Assembly (NCBI GenBank): GCA_024679065.1
Contig: JAGIQG010000001.1
Location: 48,918,001-48,982,000, forward strand
Direction: 5' to 3'
Origin: Sphyrna mokarran
Lineage: Eukaryota
Length of the DNA: 64,000 nucleotides
Position 1 is the stretch's first letter. Every line of letters starts with the position of its first letter. The position numbers and the translations under genes are program-made. This document shows, piece after piece, positions 1,315 through 57,499 of the stretch. The notes under the pieces are model-generated. The model did no database searches. It saw only the letters and a program-made list of their open reading frames with translations, and was not told where the DNA came from.

Positions 1315-1380
1315 TAGAATTCAGGCCCTAAGTACATTCTAAATAAATCTACCACATATATAATTAACCATGCCTGTATT

Positions 1381-1430
1381 ATAATCTCAGGATATTCCAA
1401 AGTGCTTCATAGCTGATGCATTACTTATAT
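1381..1430 (-). mobile_element. Old Deu-domain SINE (SacSINE1/AmnSINE-like) fragment; continues at about 3154-3330 after the CR1 insertion
   Basis: CTCAGGATATTCCAAAGTGCTTCATAGC resembles the reverse complement of the Deu-SINE 3' end seen at 43090-43375. Confidence 0.5.
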
Positions 1431-3147
1431 ACAAAGAACAAAAAACAAAACAGCACGGGAAACAGGCCCTTCGGCCCAACGAGCCCGCGCCACCACCCTG
1501 ATGTTCCCACTCTACCCGTGATCCCTGTCTATGTTTATAGATCTATGGATTAAAAACCAAATTTGATAAATTTAGGGAGAATTTGTTTTGCCAATTAGCC
1601 GAAGAGCACATCTTTGGGATGTGGGAGGAAACCAGAGCACCCAGCAAAAACCCACGCAAGCACGGGGAGAATACACAAACTCCCACAGACACAGGCCCAA
1701 ATCCATGTATCTGCACAGCACAGCGATAGTCACTGAGCTGTCGTGTTGCCCATCAACTGGTCCAGGTCAAGCGTACACTAACGACGTGAAGCACTAGGAT
1801 ACTCTCGAAAAATCCAAGAGCAGCCCTCTCACGACCCATCGCGTGTATGCCCCTCGTTAGACAACAAGGTGGACCAAAGCACCTGTAGGATAAAAACAAG
1901 TACATCAATATCATCATCTATTTACACACTTCCCAGGGACTCTCAAGGCTCATGATCCCTATTTTAAATCAGTTTTCTACACCCCTCCATTCCCATTCTG
2001 TTCATGTGCCCATCTGAGTATTTCTTAAATAACTCCAGAGTGTCTGCCTCCACCACTTTACTTGGCAGCACATTCCATACCCCCATCACCCTCTGTGTGA
2101 AAAAATTCCCTCTACCATCCAAATTATACCTTACCCCCTCACCCTAAGCCCGTGACCCCTCGTGCTATTCGAGTCCATCCTAGGAAAAAGCTTAACCCTG
2201 TTTATTCTATCTATACCCTTCATAATCTTGTACACCTCTATTAGCTCTCCTCTAAGTGTACGTCTTTCTAAGGAAAAAAGTCCCAATTTGCCTAACCTCT
2301 CCTCGTAACTCAGACCTTCCATACCAGGCAGCATCCTGGTAAACCTCCTCTCTACTCTCTCCAGAGTCTCCATGTCCTTCTGGTAGTAAGGCAACCAGAA
2401 TTGGACACAGTATTCCAAATGAGGTCTAAGCAATGTTTTATACAAGTGCAACATTAAAGGCCAGCTCTTGTATTCTATACCCCTTCCTATAAAGGCTAGC
2501 ATACTATTTGCTTTCTCCACAACCTTCTCTACTTGCTCTGCCACTTTCAGAGACTTGTTCACCTGCACCCCCAGGTCCCTCTGCATTTCTATACTCTTAA
2601 TAGGTCTACCCTTTATCATAAATCTCCCCCCTACATTCTTTCTCTCGAAATTCATCACCTCGCATTTATCAGGATTGAATTCCATCTGCCATCTTTCTGC
2701 CCAAGCTACCAGCCTATCTATGTCCTGCTGCATCGCCTGACAATGCTCCTCACTATCCGCAAGTCCAGCCATCTTTGTATCGTCTGCAAACTTGCTGATC
2801 ACTCCACTTACTCCCTCTTCCAAGTCATTTATATATATTACAAATAGAAGAGGTCCCAGTACTGAGCCCTGCAGCACACAACTAGTGACTGACCTCCAGC
2901 TAGAAAAACACCCTTCCACTATTACTCTCTGTCTCCTATTACTAAGCCAATTTCTTATCCATCTAGCTACCTGTCCTTGTATCCTATGAGCCTTGACCTT
3001 CTCAACTAGCCTCCCATGAGGGACTTTGTCAAACGCCTTACTGAAATCCACATAGACGATATCAATAGCTCGCCCTTCGTCCACCATTTTCGTCACCTCC
3101 TCAAAAAATTCTACCAGATTTGTAAGGCACGACCTCCCCTTAACAAA
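1431..3147 (-). mobile_element. CR1 LINE (RT region plus ~550 bp 3' UTR containing a V-SINE-like domain), 6-bp TSD TTATAT
   Basis: ORF 2131-3096 has DFSKAFDKV, QGSVLGPLLF and KFADDTK; frameshifted C-terminus runs to about 1978; TTATAT at 1425-1430 and 3148-3153; (TTCTTTGT)-like tail at 1431-1450. Confidence 0.9.
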
Positions 3148-3670
3148 TTATATGTATGAAGGTGGCAACTGTGCTTGCAGCAGAGCCCCACAAATGGCCT
3201 AAAATAAAGAGTCAAATAATGTTTTGTGAGTGTCAATCAAAAAAAAAGGCAGAGTCCTGAGGAGACATCTCAACTGTGTCTCCTCCTCTACCTAACATAC
3301 AGTTACATGGGCTCTGGAAGTTCTTTAGTACTTCCCCATAATGACTATTCCTCATTCAAGGGACTAAACAAGAAATCAGACATGGGATTTGGAGTAAACT
3401 GAGCTTATCATGTGCAATGTCCAAAAATCTACTCTTTCCTGCATAAATGTCTGAATAGGCATCAGCTGCAAGAATCTGGGTGGATTCCTCATTTCATAGA
3501 TCAGAAATGTATAAGTCCCATGGCTGTTCTTCTAGCCTGGAAATTCCTCAGCATTGTGATTTCACAAGTTGGGCAGGGATTCTGGAACAGTGAGTAACCT
3601 TTGGCGGAGTTTGAGCTGCTGATCTGCTCAACACGACCTTACCTCCATCTTTTATGCCCTAGTCCTCAAT

Positions 3671-5308
3671 TTATTTATTTGGTCATTGAAAAGTCTCTAA
3701 GCCAAGCAATTTCTTCTGATCTTGCTTTGTTGACTGTAAAGAGGTGTCTGCTGAGTCTGTGGTTTGGACAGTGTTCTATGATGTGGTGCACAGTTTGCTC
3801 CCTCCCACAGGTATATAGGGGGCTGGAACAAATGCACAACTGTGGAGGTTGAACAAGCAGAGCTGTGGCCAGTTCTGAACCTGTTGATGGCGGACTGCTC
3901 TTCCCTTGGAAAGTTGAACCAGACAGCTGTTGAGTTTACGATCAGATTCTTGTTTGTCATATCCAATGATTCCCATTTATTTGTCCATATGGAATTTTGT
4001 TGACCCTCTGCATGGAAGGCCTTCTGCAGGTCAGCTTCTTGATGGAAGTCATATCTTCGATGGGCTGAATAGATCAGCGTGGAGTAGCAAGTTGTTGGGG
4101 GGGGTGCAGAAGCATTATGAATTTTTTCTATAATTTTGTGGGTTGTTGCATATCGGTGGATATGTGGAGGAATGGTGTTTGCCAAGGCAATAGCCAAGAG
4201 ATGTCAGTGGGAGTCAAGGAATCCAAGGAGTCCAGAAGGATAGTGTTCTATTTAGGACACTCTGAAGCATGTTGGAGTTGGGTGGCACTTTAACTTGCAA
4301 CCATTCATTTGGATGTTGAACTCTTATGTGCTTTGACTTTGTGAAGATTGAATAAGCTGGATACTGTTTCTGCAGGTTTTAATTTGAATTACCATGTGTT
4401 GCAGTATTGTTCAAGATCAGGTCAATGAGATGAGGGCTTGGGACCTCATGGTTCCATAAATTCTGGCACAGTGTAGTTATATATGCTACTGTTTTGCCCC
4501 ACTTGAAGCCCTGTAGGACTTTCTTTAGTTAAGCAATCTCAAAAGGAGTGAGGTTGATGTCTTCCCTGTAGTACTGATGACATTGTCTTATTCACCCTAG
4601 ATGTTTCTTTTGGTGTTTTTACCTAGTGTGTCTGAGCAATGGCAAGCAGATGGCTGGAGAGGCGGTTTTGAGTGAGTGGTCTTGGGCTGCTGCAAGGTAA
4701 TGAATTAGATTCCAGCACTTCCTGCTGGAGAGTGTAAAGTTTAGCTGTGTTATTATTTCCTCCTACTTGGTGCAATGTGCAGCACTGAGGGATTCAATCA
4801 GATGGTTTTCTCCCTCTGGTCCCCTGATGCTTCCTATGTCTTTAAGAGGGCAGCACTCTCTTCAAGTAAGCATGAGATGTCGGTTAATTGGTAGCCTCAG
4901 AGAATCGTCATGCTGGTTGATTTGTTCATGGCATTACAGACTTCATTAACAGTGATGTTCTGCAGGCGTTCATTGAGATGCTGCTTTCCAAGGTTCATTG
5001 TAACTTGTCCAGTTAGGTTTCTGGCAGTTCCATTGCATCTTCTTGGGGCTGTTGACTACTTAAAGATGCAGGCCTTTGTGAACAAGTAGAAAACGATGTT
5101 AGCTAAGTGGGAAATCACCTAAAAATGTGCAGTATGGGGAGTCCTTTCAGAGAGCTGACCCCCAGCACAGGTCAGGGGAAATAATCCCTATGCCATCTGG
5201 CTGACTGGAATGTTCCTTGCTGTTGGGGGTCATGTACAAGTGTCAGATCATTTCTGGTTGCCCACATTGAGGGGCGTGGCATGAATGCTATCCGTTACTC
5301 CCCAATAG
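3671..5308 (-). mobile_element. Degenerate, internally deleted Vingi/Ingi-like non-LTR retrotransposon
   Basis: EN remnant DLTLVHDPQQQGTFQSARWHRDY; C-terminal LANTIPPHIHR and FNFPREEQSAINRFRTGH; (AAAT)n tail; GTCCTCAAT direct repeat at 3662-3670 and 5309-5317. Confidence 0.7.
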
Positions 5309-43736: not shown

Positions 43737-44180
43737 GAGGCGTCGCAGTGGTAGAGTGGTTAGCACTGCTGCCTCACAGCACCAGAGATCCAAGTTCAAT
43801 TCAAGCCTCGGGTGACTGTGGCTGGAACTCTACCACCTCGCCTGTTGCGGGATTGGTGAAGGCAAGGATCCGACAACAGAAATCCCTCGGATAGGAATTT
43901 CCAGTCTTGCCCGAGGGAGACCATAAAATCTTGCCCCATTTGTGTGGAATTTGCACCTTCTCCCTTGTCTGCATGGGTTTCCTCTGGGTTTCCTTTGGTT
44001 TCCTCCCAGGGTCCAAAAATGTACAGATTAGGTGGATTGTCCATGCTAAATTGGCCCTTATTGTCAGGGGAATTAGCAGCTTAAATGTGTAGGGTCACAG
44101 GAATAGAGCTTGGGATAGTTTTCAGTGAGGTTTGATGCGCCAAATGCTCTCCTTCTGCAGTATAGAGATTCTGATTCTAT
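43737..44180 (+). mobile_element. V-SINE type A with a ~117-bp MITE-like insert (43820-43936)
   Basis: SINE reads GGGTGACTGT | insert | TTTGTGTGGAATTTGCAC. Confidence 0.8.
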
Positions 44181-44227
44181 CTGATGTAATCTTAATTTTC
44201 ACTTTACAATAATTCCTTAAAAGAATT

Positions 44228-44728
44228 ATTATAAGAAAGATGTGGAGGCATTGGAGAGGGTACAGAGGAGGTTTACCAGGATGTTGCCTGGTATGGAAGG
44301 CAGGTCTTATGAAGAGAGGCTGAGGGATTTGAGGGTGTTTTCGTTAGAAAGAAGGCGGCTAAGAGGAGACCTTATTGAAACATATAAGATGATTAGAGAT
44401 TTAGATAGGGTGGACAGTGATAGCCTTTTTCCTAGGATGGAGAAAGCTAGCACGAGGGGACACAGCTTTAAATTAAGGTGTGGTAGTTATAGGACGGATG
44501 TCAGAGGTAGGTTCTTTACCCAGAGGGTGGTAAGGGTATGGAATGCCTGCCTGCTGCAGTTGTAGATGCGCCAAGTTTGGTGGCGTTTAAGAGGTTAGTA
44601 GATAAGTTTATGGATGAAAAGGGAATGGTCTAGGTTAGAGGGTCACTGCTTGTTCCTAATTGGTCGGCGCAACATCGAAGGCCGAAGGGCCTGTTCTGCA
44701 CTGTAATGTTCTATGTTCTATGTTCTAT
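44228..44728 (+). mobile_element. Young CR1 3' end
   Basis: ORF 44242-44565 is nearly identical to the ORF2 C-terminus at 49154; TATAAG at both junctions; (TTCTATG)n tail. Confidence 0.92.
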
Positions 44729-45733: not shown

Positions 45734-46186
45734 TACCAGGATGTTGACTGGTATGGAGGGCAGGTCTTATGAAGAGAGGGTGAGGGATTTGAGGTTGTTT
45801 TTGTTAGAAAGGAGGCGGCTAAGAGGGGACCTTATCGAAACATATAAGATGATTAGAGGTTTAGATAGGGTGGACAGTGATAGCCTTTTTCCTAGGATGG
45901 AGAAAGCTAGCACGAGGGGACACAGCTTTAAATTAAGGGGTGATAGTTATAGGACGGATATCAGAGGTAGGTTCTTTACCCAAAGGGTGGTTCGGGAGTG
46001 GAATGCCCTGCCTGCAGCAGTTGTAGATGCGCCAAGTTTGGTGGCGTTTAAGAGGTTAGTTGATAAGTATATGGAAGAGAAGGAAGTGGTTTAGTTTGGA
46101 GGGGCATTGCTTTTTATATTGGTCGGCGCAACATCGAAGGCTGAAGGGCCTGTTCTGTGCTGTAATGTTCTATGTTCTATGTTCTA
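45734..46186 (+). mobile_element. Young CR1 3' end with a fold-back 5' junction
   Basis: ORF 45741-46094; (TTCTATG)n tail. Confidence 0.92.
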
Positions 46187-46188
46187 TT

Positions 46189-48500
46189 TATAGAAACATA
46201 GAAACTAGAAGTAAGAGTAGGCCATTTGGCCCTTTGAGCCTGCTCTGCTATTCATTATGATCATGGTTGATCATCAAATCCTATATCCTGATCCGTCCTA
46301 CCCTGCTTCCCATACCCCCCCCCCCCCTAATATCCCATGATCTCTTTAGTTCCAAGAACTAAATTTAATTTTTTCTTGAAATCAGGCGACATTTATGCCT
46401 CAATTACATTCTGCGGTAGTGAATTCCACATATTCACCACCCTCTGGGTGAAGAAATTTAAAGTTAAAGTTCGTTTTAATAGTCACAAGTAGGCTTACAT
46501 TCACACTGCAATGAAGTTACAGTGAAAGTCTCCTAGTCACCACACTCCGGTGCCTGTTTGGGTGCACTGAAAGGGAATTTAACATGACCAATGCACCTAA
46601 CCAGCATGTCTTTGGACTGTGGGAAGAAACTGGAGTGTCTGGAGGAAATGCACGCAGACAGAGAGAGAACATGCCGACTTCACACAAACAGTGACCTGAG
46701 GCCGCAATGGAACCTGGGTCCCTGGCGCTGTGAGGCAGCAGTGCTAGTTAGCCACTGTGCCACCGTGAGAAATTTCTCCTCACCTCAGTTCATAGAAATC
46801 ATACAATGCAGAAGAAGGCCATTTGGCCCTTTGAGTCTTCACAGACAACAATCGCACCCCAGAACCTATACCACAACCCCACACATTTAACCTGCTAATC
46901 CCTCTAACCTATGCATCTTAGGAGACTATGGCCAATTTGGCTTGGCCAATCATTACAACACGCACATCTTAGGACTGCAGGAGGAAACTGGAACTCCCAA
47001 AGGAAACCCACACAGAAATGGGGAGAATGTGCAAACTCCACACAAACAGTGACCCAAGACAGGAATCGAACCTGGGTCCCTGGAGCTGTGCCACTATGTT
47101 GTTCTAAAATTTGATTTGATTTCATTTCATTTATTATTGTCACGTGAAAATTATTGTTTCTTGCATGCTACATAGACAAAGCATATCATTCGTAGAGAAG
47201 GAAATGAAAGAGTGCTGAATGTAGTGTTACACTCATAGTAGGGCATAGAGAAAGATCAACTTAATGCAAGATAAGTCCATTCAGAAATCTGACAGCAGTA
47301 GGGAAGAAGTTGTTCTTGAGTCTGCTGGTACATGACCTCAGACTTTTGTATCATTTTCCTGACAGAAGAAGGTGGAAGAGAGAATGTCCAGGGTGCATGG
47401 GTCCTTAATTATGCTGGCTGCTTTACTGAGGCAGGAGGAATTGTAGACAGAGTCAATAGGTGGGAGCTGGTTTGCATAATGGATTGGCTACAATCACGAT
47501 CTTCTGTAGTAATTGCGATCTTGGACAGAGCAGGAACCATACCAAGCTGTGATACAACCAGAAATAATACTTCCTATGGTGCATCTGTAAAAGTTGGTGA
47601 GAGTCATAGCTAACTTGCCAAATTTCCTTAGTTTTCTGAGGAAGTAGAGACGTTGATGGGCTTTAACTATAATGTTGGCATGGGGGGACCAGGACAAGTT
47701 GTTGGTGATCTGGACACCTAAAAACTTGAAGTTCTCGACCCTTTCTACTTCATCTCCATTGATATGTATGCTCCCCTTTACGCTTCCTGAAATTGATGAC
47801 AAGTTCCTTCATTTTGTTGATATTGCGGGAGAGATTATTGTTGTAGCACCAGTCCATCAGATTCTCTATCTCATTCCTGTCCTCTGTCTCCTCATTGTTT
47901 GAGATCTGATCCACTATGGTGGTGTTGTTAGCAAACTTGAAAATCGAATTGGAGGGGAATTTGGCCACACAATTATAGGTCTATAAGGAGTATCGTAGGG
48001 AGCTGAGAACACAGCCTTGTGGGGCACTGGTGTTGAGGATGATTGTGAAAGAGGCCTATCCTTACTGATTGTGGTCTGTGTGTTAAGAGGTTCAGGATCC
48101 AGTTGCAGAAAGAGATGCCAAAACATTTATCCCTTATCCTCAAATCATGACCCTTAGTTCTGGACACCTACCATTGGGAACATTCTTCCTGAATCTACTC
48201 TTTGTATCCCTGTTTTATATGTTTCTATGACATCCATTCTCACTCTTCTAAACTCCAGTAAATATGATCCTCACCAACTTAGTCTACTCTTATAGACTGA
48301 GTTGCCATCCCAGGAATCAATTTTCGCTCTACCCCTTCTATAACAAGAAAATCCATTTTCAGATAAGGACACCAAAGTTGTATACAATACTCTAGATGTG
48401 ACCTCACCAATGGCTTATACAATTGCAATAAAACACTTCTATTGCTATACTCAAATCTTCTCGCTATGAAGGCCAGCATACAATCAGCCTGCTATACCTG
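46189..48500 (-). mobile_element. Old CR1 3' region split by V-SINE B (46459-46765), V-SINE A (46790-47098) and Rex1
   Basis: MLAFIARRFEYSNRSVLLQLYKPLVRSHLEYC at 48279-48479; pieces rejoin collinearly; AGAAATTT duplicated around the first SINE. Confidence 0.75.
47111..48115 (-). mobile_element. Rex1/Babar LINE RT and 3' end
   Basis: IFKFANNTTIV (decayed FADD), FKFLGVQITNNLSW, KAHQRLYFLRKLRKF, LTNFYRCTI; (AATCA)n tail. Confidence 0.85.
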
Positions 48501-48610: not shown

Positions 48611-49062
48611 ATGAGCAGAATTTTCCCTTCCAAGACTAAGAGCAGAATTCTCCTTTTTGTCTGAGAATGGTGTACGTGGATCTGATGGTGCTGTTCCCAA
48701 TAGCCTGAATGAGTGGACTCGTGCCTGATTCAGCTCTTGGAGCCTTATTAATTATTCACAAGCAAGCATTTTTCTGAGCATCCTGCAGGCTGAAGGCTGA
48801 GAGCTAGCGGATTCGAGGGTCTGGACACCATATCTAAACTCCAGTCTAGCATGCTCTTGTCACTCCCTCCAGCCTGCCTGTTGCCAGGAGGCCTTGCACT
48901 GATCTGGAATCCAGAAGCAAAAGGTTAGAAAGGCAACAATAAAAAGAAATTAAAATTAACTACAATAATGGTTGTCTCAACAGTATGTTTAAATTGTACA
49001 GATACAGCATTCTGAGTGAAGACATTTCTACTCATCTCAGTTCTAAATAGCCTACCCCATAT

Positions 49063-50580
49063 AGAACATAGAACATAGAACAATACAGCACAGAACAGGC
49101 CCTTCGGCCTTCGATGTTGTGCCGACCAAAATAAAAAGCAATGCCCCTCCAAACTAAACCATTCCCTTCTCTTCCATATACTTATCAATTAACCTCTTAA
49201 ACGCCACCAAACTTGGCGCATCTACAACAGCTGCAGGCAGGGCATTCCACTCCCTAATCACTCTTTGAGTAAAGAACCTACCTCTGATATCCGTCCTATA
49301 ACTCATACCCCTTAATTTAAAGCTGTGTCCCCTCGTGCTAGCTTTCTCCATCCTAGGAAAAAGGCTATCGCTGTCCACCCTATCTAAACCTCTAATCATC
49401 TTATATGCTTCAATAAGATCCCCTCTTAGCCGCCTCCTTTCTAACGAAAACAACCTCAAATCCTTCAACCTCTCTTCATAGGACCTGCCCTCCATACCAG
49501 GCAACATCCTGGTAAACCTCCTCTGTACCCTCTCCAATGCCTCCACATCTTTCTTATAATGTGGCGACCAGAACTGCACACAATACTCCAAGTGCGGCCG
49601 CACTAGAGTTTTGTACAGTTGCAACATGATGCTGCGGCTCCTAAATTCAATCCCCCTACCAATAAAAGCTAAGACTCCATAAGCCTTCTTAACAACTTTA
49701 TCCACTTGACTGCCTACTTTCAGGGATCTATTGACGCATACACCAAGATCCTTCTGTTCCTCAACACTATTAAGAGCCCTACCATTAGCCCTATACTCTA
49801 CACATTTATTGTTCCTGCCAAAGTGCATTACCTCACACTTTTCCACATTAAACTCCATTTGCCACCTCTCGGCCCAGCTCTGCAACTTGTCCAAGTCACT
49901 CTGTAAACTAAAACACCCCTCTTCACTATCTACCACACCACCAACTTTAGTATCATCTGCAAATTTACTGATCCATCCCTCAATACCCTCATCCAGATCA
50001 TTTATAAAAATTACAAACAGCAGGGGCCCCAAAACAGACCCCTGAGGCACACCACTTGTCACCGAACTCCACGATGAATATCTCCCATCAACCACCACCC
50101 TCTGTCTTCTATCTGCCAGCCAATTCCTAATCCAATTAGCTAAATCACCCTCTATTCCACACATCTGCATTTTCTGTAGAAGTCTTCCATGGGCCACCTT
50201 ATCAAACGCCTTACTAAAGTCCATATATACTACATCAACCGCCTTACCCCCATCCACCTCTCTGGTCACTTTCTCAAAAAACTCAATGAGGTTAGTAAGG
50301 CATGACCTACCCTTCACGAAACCATGCTGACTATCCCCAATCAATTCATTTCTCTCTAAATAACTATAAATCCTATCCCTAATAATTCTCTCCAATACCT
50401 TGCCCACAACAGAAGTAAGACTCACTGGCCTATAATTCCCTGGAAGGTCTCTCTTCCCCTTCTTAAACAATGGGACCACATTCGCTATCCTCCAGTCCTC
50501 CGGAACCACACCCGTAACCAACGAGGACCTGAAGATCAGAGACAGAGGCTCTGCAATCTCCTCTCTTGCCTCCCAGAGAA
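49063..50580 (-). mobile_element. Young 5'-truncated CR1 with an uninterrupted RT domain, nested in an older CR1; ATAT TSD
   Basis: NYRPVSLTS, QHGF, DFSKAFDKV, PQGSVLGP and KFADDTK in one open frame to the stop at 49154; ATAT at 49059-49062 and 50581-50584. Confidence 0.95.
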
Positions 50581-52180
50581 ATATCTTGAAACTGTGACCC
50601 ATTGTTCTAGACCATCCAACCAGAGGAAACAATATTCTGGTATCCTGTCTGTCCAGCACTGTCAGAATTTTATACATTTCAATTAGGCCCTCATTCACTC
50701 TTCTAAGTACCAATGTATACAAACCCAACTGATGCAATCTCTCCTCATATGCTAATTCTGGCATCGTATAAATCAGTCTGATGAACGTTGCCTCCATGAC
50801 AAGTACATCCTTTCTTAAATAAGGAGACCAAAACTTCACAGAATACTCCAGATATGGTCTCTTATAAATGTACAGCTGAAGTAAGATGTTCCTGCATTCA
50901 AATCCTCTTGCAATAAAGGCCAACATAAGTAATCTTCCTAAATGCTTGCTGTAACTGCGTGTCTGCTTTCAGTGATAGATTTCATTATATATCAACATTT
51001 CTCAATCTATCACCGTTTAAATAATACTGTCATTCTGTTCCTCTATCCAAAGTGCATATCCATATTATACTATATCTATCAAATTTGTCCACTCACTCAA
51101 CTTGGCTAAATCACAATGAAGCCTTTTAACATCCTCCTCACCACTCACTTATCCACATGTTTTGTGCCATCAGTAAATTTGGAAATATTACATATAGTTC
51201 CCTCACATAAATTATTGATGTATATTGTGAAAAGCTAGTCCCAAGACTAATCATTGTGAGACACCATTTGTCACTGCGTGCCACTTTGAAAAAGACCCAT
51301 TTATTCTTATCCATGCCAATCCCAAGCACTTTAACTTTGCATATTAACATCTTATGTGCTTGATCAAAAGCTTTCTGAAAATCCAAATACATGAAATCCA
51401 CGGGCTTATCCTTGTCTATTCTACTAGTAACACCCTCAAAAAACTCAGTAGGTTTGTCAAACGTATTTTTCTCTTTCATAAATCCAGGCTGACTTTGTCT
51501 AATCTCATTGATCATTTCTAAGTATCCTATTATCACATCCTTTAGAATAGATTCTAGCAATTTCCCTGCTACTGACATTAGGCTAACTAATCTGTGTTTC
51601 CGTGTTGCCTCCATCTTTTTTTAAATATTGAAGTACATTTGCAACCCGCTATTCTGCTGGGATATTCCAAAATCTATAGAATTTTAGAAAACGGTAACCA
51701 ATGCATCCACTATTTCCACTATTTCTCCTTTAGTACCTTGGGATATAGATTATCAGTCCCTGGGGATTTATCAACTTTTAGTCCCATTCATTTTTCAATA
51801 CTATTTTTCCAGTAATATTACTTTCCCTCAATTCCTCCTCACTCTACTCTTGTTTCCTTAAACTTTTTAGGGAGTTGTTTGTGTCTTCCTCCAGGAAGAC
51901 AGAGCTAAAGTAGTTGTTTAATTGCTTTGCCAATTCCTTGCTTTCCATTACAAATTCTCCTGTTTCGGAGACCTACATTTGTCTTCACTGATCTTTTTTT
52001 TATTATATACTTATAGAAGCATTTACAATCCACTTCTTTTGTTATTTGCAAGTTAACTACCATACGCAATCCCTTGGCCCTCTTTTGCTGAATACTGAAC
52101 GTCTCCGAATCCTCAGGCATGCTACTTTTTCTAGCAACTTTATAGACTTTGTGCTTTGGACCTAACAGCATGCTTCATTT
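50581..52180 (-). mobile_element. Older CR1 (host of the young copy; resumes at about 48995-49062)
   Basis: ORF 51138-51614 (YLDFQKAFD); ...GHSFKI | WGRLFRTEMSRNVFTQ rejoins across the insertion. Confidence 0.85.
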
Positions 52181-52987: not shown

Positions 52988-54740
52988 GTACATTGAAACA
53001 TAGAGACTAGAAGCAGGAGTAGACCATTTGGCCCTTCGAGTCTGTTCTGCCATTCATTTTGATCATGGCTGATCATCAAATTCAATATCCTATCCCCCCT
53101 CCTTCCACCCATATCATTTGATCCCTTTAGCCCCAAGGGCACAGTGGTTAGCACTTTTGCCTCACAGTGTCAGGCACCCAGGTTTGATTCCCTGCTTGGC
53201 TCACTGTCTTGTGGAGTTTGCACATTCTCCCTGTGTCGGTGTGGGTTTCTTTCGGGTGCTCAGGTTTCCTCCCACAGCCTAAAGACATGCTGGTTAGGTG
53301 AATGGCCATGCTAAATTTCCCTCAGTGTACCCGAACAGGTGCCTGAGTGTGGCAACTAGGGAATTTTCGCAGTAACTTAAAAATTTATTTATTAGTAAAG
53401 TTTGTTTATTAGTCACAAGTGAGGCTAACATTAACACTGCAAAGAAATTCTGTGAAATTCTCCTAGTCACCTTACTTCGGCTTCTGTTTGGGTCAATGCA
53501 CCTAATCAGCATGTCTTTTAGAATATAGGAGGAAACCAGGGTGCTCACAGGAAACCCACACAAACACAGGGAGAACTTGCAAACTCCACACGGACAGTGA
53601 CCCAAGTCAAGAATTGAACCGGGATCCTGGCGCTGTGAGGCAGCAGTACCATTGTTACTACCGTGCCACCCACCGTTGTCCTACCATGATGCCCTTGCAA
53701 TGATAATTTCATTGTGGTGTGAATGTAAGCCTACTTGTGACTAATAAACCAATGTTACTTAATTTCTTGAAATCAGAAGATTTGTGCTTTAAATGGCAGA
53801 ACCCTTAGGAACATTTACATAAAGTGGGATCTGGGCGTGAGGGTCCACTGTTCCCTAAAAGTGGCAATACAGGTGGCCAAGGTGATTAAGAAGGCACATT
53901 ACATGCTTGCCTTCATTGGCTGGGTCATTGAGTACAAGAGTTGGAAAATCATGTTGTAGCTTGGTTAGGCTGCATTTAGAGTATTGCGTGCAGTTCTGGT
54001 CACCACACAGCAAAGGATGTGGAAGCTTTGGAGACAGTGCAAAGATGGTTCACCAGGATGTTGCCTAGTCTTGAGGGTGTTGGCTATGAGGAGAGATTGA
54101 ATAAACAAGGATTGGTTTCACTGGAAAGATGAAGCTGAAAAGAGATCTGATAGAGTTAAAATCAGGGTGGATAAGTCAGAGGCTTTTTCATTGGTAAATG
54201 TGTCAATTACAAGGGGGCACAGATTCAAGGTGGAGAGGGGGAAAGTTTAAGGGAAATGTGCAGGAGAGATTTTTCATGCAGAAAGTGAAGGGTGCCTGGA
54301 ATGCATTGCCAGAGGAGGTGGTAGAAGCACGAACATTAGCAACACTTAAGAGACATCTGAATGGGTACGTAAACAGGAGGGGAATAGAAGGATCCAAGCC
54401 AAGTAAGGGCTGTTTTTTTTTAGTTTAGGGCATCGTGATTGGCACAGGTTTAGGGGGCCGAAGGACCTGTTCCTAAGCTGTACTTTTCTTTGTTCTTTGT
54501 TCTTAGTTTTGGCCTCAACCAGTTGCCGTGGTAGTGAATTCCAACATTCACCAACATCTGGATGAAGAGATTTCTCCTCAATTTCCTTCCAAACAAATTG
54601 ACCCCTTATCCTCAAACTATGACCCCTAGTTCTGGATTCCCCACCATTGGAAACACTCTTTCTGAATCTACCTTGTCTAACCCTGTTGGAATTTTATACA
54701 TTTCTATGAGATTTCTTCTCACTCTTCTAAACTCCAATGT
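52988..54740 (-). mobile_element. CR1 3' end split by two opposed type-B V-SINEs (53138-53750 + and 53379-53672 -) and a + strand CR1 (about 53800-54502)
   Basis: Collinear CR1 pieces at 52988-53137 and 54503-54740; inner CR1 reads ERFFMQKVKGAWNALPEEVVEA. Confidence 0.75.
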
Positions 54741-56683: not shown

Positions 56684-56856
56684 AACAAAGAACAAAAAAA
56701 CAAAGAATGACACAACATGGGAAACAGGCCCTTCAGCCCAACGAGCTTCGTCTGCCATTTTAACAATGTGAGTTCCTTCTTCCACCCATGACCCTTGTCT
56801 ATGCTTATGGAAATCCACATTGGAAACCAGATTGAGGGGAGACAATTTAGGGCAAA
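56684..56856 (-). mobile_element. Truncated second copy of the long CR1 3' UTR seen at 1431-1585
   Basis: ACAAAGAACAAAAAA...GGGAAACAGGCCCTTC.GCCCAACGAGC...ACCC.TGA.CC.TGTCTATG.TTAT...AATTTAGGG. Confidence 0.7.
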
Positions 56857-57499
56857 TGATGGCAAGTTGAATCAGAGTTAATGTTTATAAGCCATAAACT
56901 CTCAACGGGCAGAATCAATCTAGCCAAAGATAAGATACAAGCAATATTAAAAACACATGGACCACAAAATGTCAGTGAAGTGATAAATTTTCTGGGATTT
57001 GTGAAATATTGTGTGTGGTATATCCCAAACTTCTTGACCCTGACTGATCCATAAGGAGGTTCATCAAAGCTTCCTTCAGGGCTTTGAAAGACGACTTGAC
57101 GAGTTCTTGAGTCCTGGAATGCCATGATCCAAAAGCAGCAATAAAAGCCGAAGCAGATTATAGACCAATGAGATTAAGAATAGTGTGGGCTGAAGGGCCA
57201 AGAATCATTGCTTCTGTGAGCAGATCACTGACAGATGTGGACAGGAGATATTTTCAGTTGGTGGAAGAGGCCCTAGGATTGCTATGGGCATGTGAAAGAT
57301 TCCATGCATACTGATTCGGCATTGAGTTTGAATTAATGATAGATGAAAAGCCATGAGAGACAATTTATTTTCCCAGATCCAAACCATGTGCCAGAATTGA
57401 GAAATGGGCTTTGAAACTGAGGAGTACAACTACAAAGGGCAGAATACTGCACTCCCCAAACCTCTGGCAGTTTAGAGTATAAGATTGCATGGACAGGAT

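Follow-up and report, generated by a model that had tools for sequence, protein, structure and literature searches.

A young CR1 insertion with an old V-type SINE relic inside its 3′ UTR, suggesting a LINE subfamily with a captured SINE

Sequence usually flows from LINEs to SINEs; how, then, did a CR1 LINE come to hold a SINE-derived block in its own 3′ UTR, and does it spread that block with each new copy? The locus lies in a 64-kb stretch of DNA (hereafter the window) that contains many CR1 fragments and many SINEs with one conserved body in common. It is a 5′-truncated CR1 insertion on the minus strand, running from 3147 to 1431 and directly flanked at both ends by TTATAT. A preliminary description had drawn a single target site duplication (TSD) around a CR1 reverse transcriptase (RT), a spacer, a same-strand SINE block, and a CR1-type tail, and this anatomy proved real. 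The two TTATAT copies abut the ends exactly, an arrangement found in 3 of 8843 random position pairs (106 of 8843 with a slack of ±3 nt), and between them lie the truncated ORF2, the spacer, a same-strand SINE relic, a distal body, and a CR1-type stem-loop tail, in that order:

3148–3153, no strand: TSD at the 5′ (truncated) end, TTATAT, abutting exactly
2131–3147, minus strand: CR1 ORF2, RT domain and C-terminal part, 5′-truncated, 338 codons stop-free up to a frameshift
1964–2131, minus strand: ORF2 C-terminus past the frameshift, 55 more codons, stop at 1966–1964
1950–1963, minus strand: possible remnant of an ordinary short CR1 3′ UTR, 15 of 19 bases matching the UTR of the CR1 at 54390–54510
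1753–1949, minus strand: CpG-rich spacer of unassigned origin, unique in the window
1702–1752, minus strand: putative decayed SINE head (A-box region) with the B box lost in an 18-nt deletion, placed by an anchored end-to-end test
1572–1703, minus strand: V-type conserved SINE block, common to 22 free SINE copies in the window
1495–1571, minus strand: distal UTR body, found otherwise only in the copy at 56.7 kb
1431–1494, minus strand: CR1-type terminal stem-loop and short repeat tail, CpGs intact
1425–1430, no strand: TSD at the 3′ end, TTATAT, abutting exactly
56685–56857, minus strand: second, older, 5′-truncated insertion with the same body and tail, without a clear TSD

The 5′ truncation and short TSD are those of target-primed insertion, as in CR1 LINEs, and the truncation removed the endonuclease domain and ORF1. 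In the five other CR1 3′ ends that were aligned, the terminal stem-loop lies within a few tens of bases of the end of ORF2. Compared with these, the focal CR1 has about 450 nt extra between the two, made up of a spacer with no match in the window, the SINE-derived block, and a body of about 80 nt.

The RT assignment also held. On the minus strand the frame is open from 3147 to 2131 and, after the frameshift, on to the stop at 1966–1964, and it begins inside the RT domain (PF00078, E = 6e-23). ORF2 totals 393 codons with no stop, and its single frameshift falls within a run of G and may reflect an assembly error. Its C-terminus is 51–53% identical to those of four other CR1 copies in the window. 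Among the best 120 of 4420 protein-database matches, the highest identity was 67%; named entries from sharks and rays (bamboo shark, zebra shark, stingray, sawfish) were 55–63% identical, and turtle and bird entries about 50%. Judged by the named entries, the host is most probably a shark or ray. By its RT domain, these protein matches, and general features of the group rather than by a tree, we place the element in the CR1 clade. The matches listed also included reverse transcriptases labeled Klebsiella pneumoniae and Proteus mirabilis (64–66% identical), which come from contigs shorter than 1.7 kb and probably represent animal DNA that ended up in bacterial assemblies. The window also contains a second young CR1 family, whose copies are about 88–95% alike and have a short 3′ UTR, at 867–1315, 44226–44728, 45734–46190, and 49058–50560; its copy at 49–50 kb is stop-free over 338 codons, shares 67% identity with the focal ORF2, and lies directly against an older, decayed CR1 at about 50580–51650.

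The block downstream of the spacer was compared with the free SINEs of the window, whose body we take to be the published V domain (V-type by name, not by alignment to a published consensus) and which we presume to be HE1-like. A profile built from 19 of the 22 free copies matched 1703–1572 with E = 4e-24, from model position 70 on only, so the same-strand SINE block described earlier is homologous to the abundant SINE body of the window. Identity to consensus in the V core was 25/30 in each of two segments (82–85% in free copies).

The adjoining head is less well preserved. A head-only profile in local nhmmer gave no match at E ≤ 10, and Rfam and ARAGORN, run over 1300–2200, returned nothing, missing the head at 1702–1752 as well. 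When a 17-copy head model was instead scored end to end on 1700–1775, under three blur settings of our choosing, the alignment ended at 1702, adjoining the V block; 1, 0, and 0 of 1500 genomic windows, respectively, and 0 of 500 shuffles scored as high. The score itself was low (18.7 vs. 37.7–63.7 for free heads), and only 16 of 29 head positions were identical to the consensus. Because the end-to-end score is rarely matched by chance but low, we regard the SINE head, on sequence comparison, as real and badly worn. The A-box-like head of the preliminary description thus survives in the anchored test beside the V block, at less strength than was stated, and the tRNA-derived head with an A box expected of a V-SINE is present weakly. 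The absence of a B box, also claimed, was confirmed: the B box of a working SINE would fall within the 18-nt deletion, and because it is deleted the relic is unlikely to be an active SINE.

The relic lies far from the free copies, in agreement with the earlier account. At non-CpG columns it is 68.7% identical to the free-SINE consensus, compared with 75.7–88.2% for the free copies, making it the most divergent of 20 aligned copies (31% from the consensus at non-CpG sites), and in a tree of the 20 SINE blocks its terminal branch is 0.51 against a median of 0.2. By their tails, 19 free copies sorted into seven of type A, ten of type B, and two unclassified, and the relic grouped firmly with neither type in that tree (57/57 support). 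The two types have the head and V-type block in common and differ in their 3′ parts, the seven having a CR1-like tail and the ten an unrelated one. One free SINE (43740–44059, plus strand) contains an insert of unassigned origin, about 120 nt long (43820–43937), that separates its head from its V block.

The preliminary description had also argued from CpG retention, and here its argument holds for the spacer and tail but fails for the SINE block. The claim that the block keeps many CpGs is contradicted by the ancestral sites: it retains 2 of the 10 that were scored, with 6 now TG or CA, while free copies retain 0–2. It has 5 CG in 186 nt (free copies, 0–5) and a TG+CA observed/expected (o/e) ratio of 1.5 vs. 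1.3 for the window. The spacer, by contrast, is as CpG-rich as claimed. Over 1753–1963 its CpG o/e is 0.73 against a window tile median of 0.2, a value reached by 3 of 303 tiles, one of which overlaps the spacer; body plus tail reach 0.87, and the whole 3′ extension 0.64, a level seen in 1 of 114 tiles outside it (median 0.2). For the other young CR1 copies of the window, CpG o/e is 0.39–0.55. TG+CA o/e ratios of 1.1 for the spacer and 0.99 for body plus tail show little excess (window, 1.3). Because the spacer and tail are CpG-high with little TG+CA excess, they look like retroelement sequence that has not been in methylated DNA for long, unlike ordinary methylated host flank carried along once. 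The spacer had no other match anywhere in the 64-kb window, and its ORFs had neither a Pfam domain nor a protein-database match. The 15/19 match over 1950–1963, for which no significance was computed, is no more than suggestive of leftover ordinary CR1 UTR between the ORF2 stop and the spacer. By eye, the spacer also contains a splice-acceptor-like pyrimidine tract followed by CAG at 1900–1883 (minus strand), and the spacer might derive from a host intron–exon border, or the UTR might be spliced.

The age of the insertion was estimated from ORF2 by a neutral-decay simulation (2000 runs, substitutions only, assumed rates), in which the frame stayed stop-free in 4.4% of runs at 6% divergence, 0.5% at 10%, and none at 20%. 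Since ORF2 is stop-free over 393 codons, it has thus decayed by less than about 6%, and the insertion is young. That the relic is much older than the insertion, its 31% divergence and the loss of its B box having preceded it, is well supported. The evidence likewise supports arrival of the SINE relic together with the LINE as one TSD-bounded unit.

If the SINE came with the LINE, which of the two supplied the 3′ end? The last 53 nt match all four CR1 3′ ends in the window with which they were compared (z 10.8–12.8), as the claim of a CR1-type tail requires, vs. one of six type-A SINE ends (z 6.6, others ≤1.9) and none of four type-B ends. Like CR1, the element ends in a 3′ stem-loop and a short repeat tail without poly(A). 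The tail folds into a nested two-stem form resembling that of the CR1 at 49.1 kb, a fold that is not significant alone (equaled in 11 of 200 shuffles for the focal tail and 18 of 200 for the 49.1-kb CR1). The free SINE family's own 3′ body and tail are missing from the relic (body 0/10, tail 1/10). Because the tail matches CR1 and not the free-SINE tails, the recognition tail is LINE-type and the SINE's own tail lost. These comparisons do not support the view that the LINE adopted the SINE as a new 3′ end; on sequence grounds an internal passenger is the better reading of the SINE, and the simplest reading places the extra DNA between the two halves of the LINE's own UTR.

The distal body, tested as an 83-nt segment (1484–1566), matched none of 10 free SINE 3′ parts and none of 4 CR1 3′ parts (z ≤ 1.3). 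It did match the second copy at 56.7 kb (z 10.2, 0 of 300 shuffles), and as a window-wide query its sole match was that copy. The diverged second copy of the distal UTR noted earlier was confirmed: at 56685–56857 it agrees with the focal element at 121 of 151 aligned bases, and with gaps counted the identity is 69.5% over 164 nt (E = 6e-15). Its first ~12 nt correspond to the end of the V-type block, and it keeps two of the focal element's five CpGs, the other three having decayed. The sequence upstream of it resembles neither the V block nor the spacer (z −1.0 and −0.2, respectively). The second copy shows that the unusual body and tail have moved at least twice and are old, and says nothing on whether the spacer and SINE traveled along. 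About 20 nt past its tail lies an element with a tRNA-like head (56665–56585, minus strand; weak profile match, E = 0.13).

Further copies were sought in the window and beyond. Neither the ORF2–spacer nor the spacer–SINE junction recurs in the 64-kb window, and a 22-nt spacer pattern had no match in metagenome contigs. Scans with ORF2 yielded no relatives in viral contigs, 52 loci in metagenomes, and one in prokaryote genomes, all 53 of them distant. At E ≤ 0.05 none of these loci matched the second copy, the spacer, the head, or either of two free SINE probes; one had a weak 41-nt match to the distal part (E = 0.021). The ORF2 C-terminus and the spacer ORF gave no protein-database candidates, and exact protein look-ups returned 0 of 7. 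Because no source yielded a close relative of even ORF2, these blanks on junction copies say little; the collections hold little close shark DNA. A comparison of 1316–4500 with public runs listed 24 (ten coded organisms plus metagenomes), the best with a share of 0.80, three with 0.20–0.34, and twenty with 0.05–0.13; since these shares are not tied to any part of the element, we do not count them as evidence. A literature search, covering the main texts of mostly open-access papers, found no report of a CR1 or other LINE family with a SINE in its 3′ UTR, and the accessible portions of four papers mention none (PMC13343379, PMC5499810, PMC13295347, PMC11303007). Repbase or Dfam may already contain the focal consensus.

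We consider it probable that the locus represents a CR1 subfamily carrying a captured V-SINE in its 3′ UTR. Observed directly are the single TSD-bounded unit, the age gap between ORF2 and relic, the LINE-type tail, and the second copy of body and tail; as in a LINE with a captured SINE, the relic is both older than the insertion and inside the same TSD. One example is complete, and propagation of the ORF2–spacer–SINE arrangement as a multi-copy subfamily is likely but inferred. The chief rival, which we think rather unlikely but by no means negligible, is a one-off or rare chimera, in which a tailless young CR1 read through or switched onto a member of a third, CR1-tailed V-SINE family (head, V block, body, and tail, plus about 200 nt upstream of the SINE). 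The SINE would then supply the 3′ end, in line with the preliminary description, but no LINE lineage would have been founded, and the 56.7-kb copy would be a truncated member of that third family. That copy indeed comprises only the V end, body, and tail, without spacer or ORF2, and its ~12 nt of V overlap could belong to a truncated SINE of an unsampled family. The methylation decay of the SINE block fits such an event, V-SINEs with CR1 tails exist, according to the text available (PMC4824008, PMC3747384), and SINE/LINE chimeras under one TSD are common in mammals, with 452 Alu/L1 cases in the accessible part of one survey (PMC13174262). Against this, the 19 free V copies comprise 7 of type A, 10 of type B, and 2 unclassified, and across the window the body finds the 56.8-kb copy only. 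Moreover, a CpG-fresh tail and spacer stand beside a badly decayed head, a combination that one old dead locus would not give, and the Alu/L1 chimeras, as far as that survey could be consulted, mostly involve a full-length SINE of a family active at the time (PMC13174262).

Two further readings are both very improbable. In one, the CR1 inserted first and the SINE, with the spacer, later entered its 3′ UTR in place. Nested insertions do occur elsewhere in the window, and a search for a TSD of the SINE block's own produced a sole candidate, an imperfect 10-nt direct repeat at 1960–1951 and 1526–1517. We rejected this candidate as chance, repeats of such quality occurring in 71 of about 1000 random pairs. 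The second copy spans the right-hand repeat, and the inner part has neither a B box nor a SINE tail. It is also older than the outer part, which makes a later nested insertion very unlikely. Equally improbable is that the V-type block is native LINE 3′ UTR from an old CR1 lineage that was itself the source of the SINE body. The long branch and the lack of firm grouping with either free type (57/57 support) agree with this, as do LINEs that have donated middle parts to SINEs (PMC5786205, in the portion available). The donors named in the same portion, however, are 5′ parts of RTE and Vingi only. In addition, the block is immediately preceded by a SINE-type head and is missing from the five other aligned CR1 3′ ends, whose UTRs are short.

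The subfamily reading would imply the following history. Long ago about 450 nt would have entered the short 3′ UTR of a source CR1, downstream of the ORF2 stop and upstream of the stem-loop. The gained DNA would have included an old V-type SINE, in decay either by then or only later, which lost its B box and own tail. Insertion, or a template switch during reverse transcription, may have brought the SINE, or an RNA or DNA piece containing it, into the UTR of an active master. The pol II transcript of the master would now include the SINE segment, while the ORF2 protein would still recognize the LINE's own stem-loop tail and prime reverse transcription there, such recognition of their own 3′ stem-loop being a property of stringent LINEs in the text available to us (PMC3747384). 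In each new copy, tail, body, SINE relic, and spacer would be made before ORF2, and the relic, with no need of its own promoter, would drift as a passenger.

Several known systems resemble parts of this arrangement. Walsh and colleagues reportedly described, in 2013, lineages of BovB whose ends include pieces of other elements. BovB would resemble the focal element in that active LINE lineages can absorb other repeats, and differs in belonging to the RTE clade; a single L1–BovB chimera also appears in the accessible part of another report (PMC6036668). The remaining comparisons likewise draw on the portions of the cited papers that were available. MER6/MER6A, a mammalian Tc1/Mariner MITE with a captured Ac1-like V-SINE that it spread (PMC6887750), is similar in holding a V-SINE inside another mobile element with the working head lost, and MER6 multiplied it as a passenger. 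Its carrier, unlike the coding CR1 here, is a non-autonomous DNA transposon, and for the CR1 multi-copy spread is inferred. Capture of a V-SINE by another element is thus already known, and the focal case is a variant and not a new kind. HE1, the V-SINE of sharks and rays, and its partner LINE HER1 (PMC4824008, PMC3747384) agree with our element in host group (by protein matches), tRNA-type head, V block, and CR1-clade tail; HE1, however, borrows a LINE tail and moves itself, whereas here a dead SINE sits inside a LINE UTR upstream of a LINE-type tail. Alu/LINE-1 chimeras (452 in one survey, each a single event; PMC13174262) likewise combine SINE and LINE in one orientation under one TSD. Their Alu is mostly full-length and of a then-active family. 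The focal SINE, by contrast, is an old one without B box or tail, with a spacer between it and ORF2 and a LINE tail after it. Ingi-3_AC has a 68-nt Ceph-SINE/RTE-like piece in its 5′ UTR, for which the author called recombination only possible (PMC5786205); it is comparable as a LINE consensus possibly gaining SINE sequence by recombination and differs in the UTR concerned, the length of the piece, and the LINE clade.

If the captured-SINE reading is true, the usual direction of sequence flow is reversed, the LINE family having a SINE within its own 3′ UTR. A more specific, tentative possibility is an active CR1 lineage of elasmobranchs whose 3′ UTR has housed a promoter-dead V-SINE for so long that its copies differ by 20–30%. 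Such a LINE would spread the V block and could found new SINE families by gain of a head. Since copying begins at the 3′ end, most truncated copies would resemble odd V-SINEs and be mis-called as SINEs in annotation. The lineage would also be a natural experiment on the role of the conserved V block, a long-open question, in which its retention could be tested directly without the need for pol III transcription. Here the V core is kept and the head worn; if many copies agree, this would suggest that the V block acts in the RNA or retrotransposition stage and not in pol III transcription.
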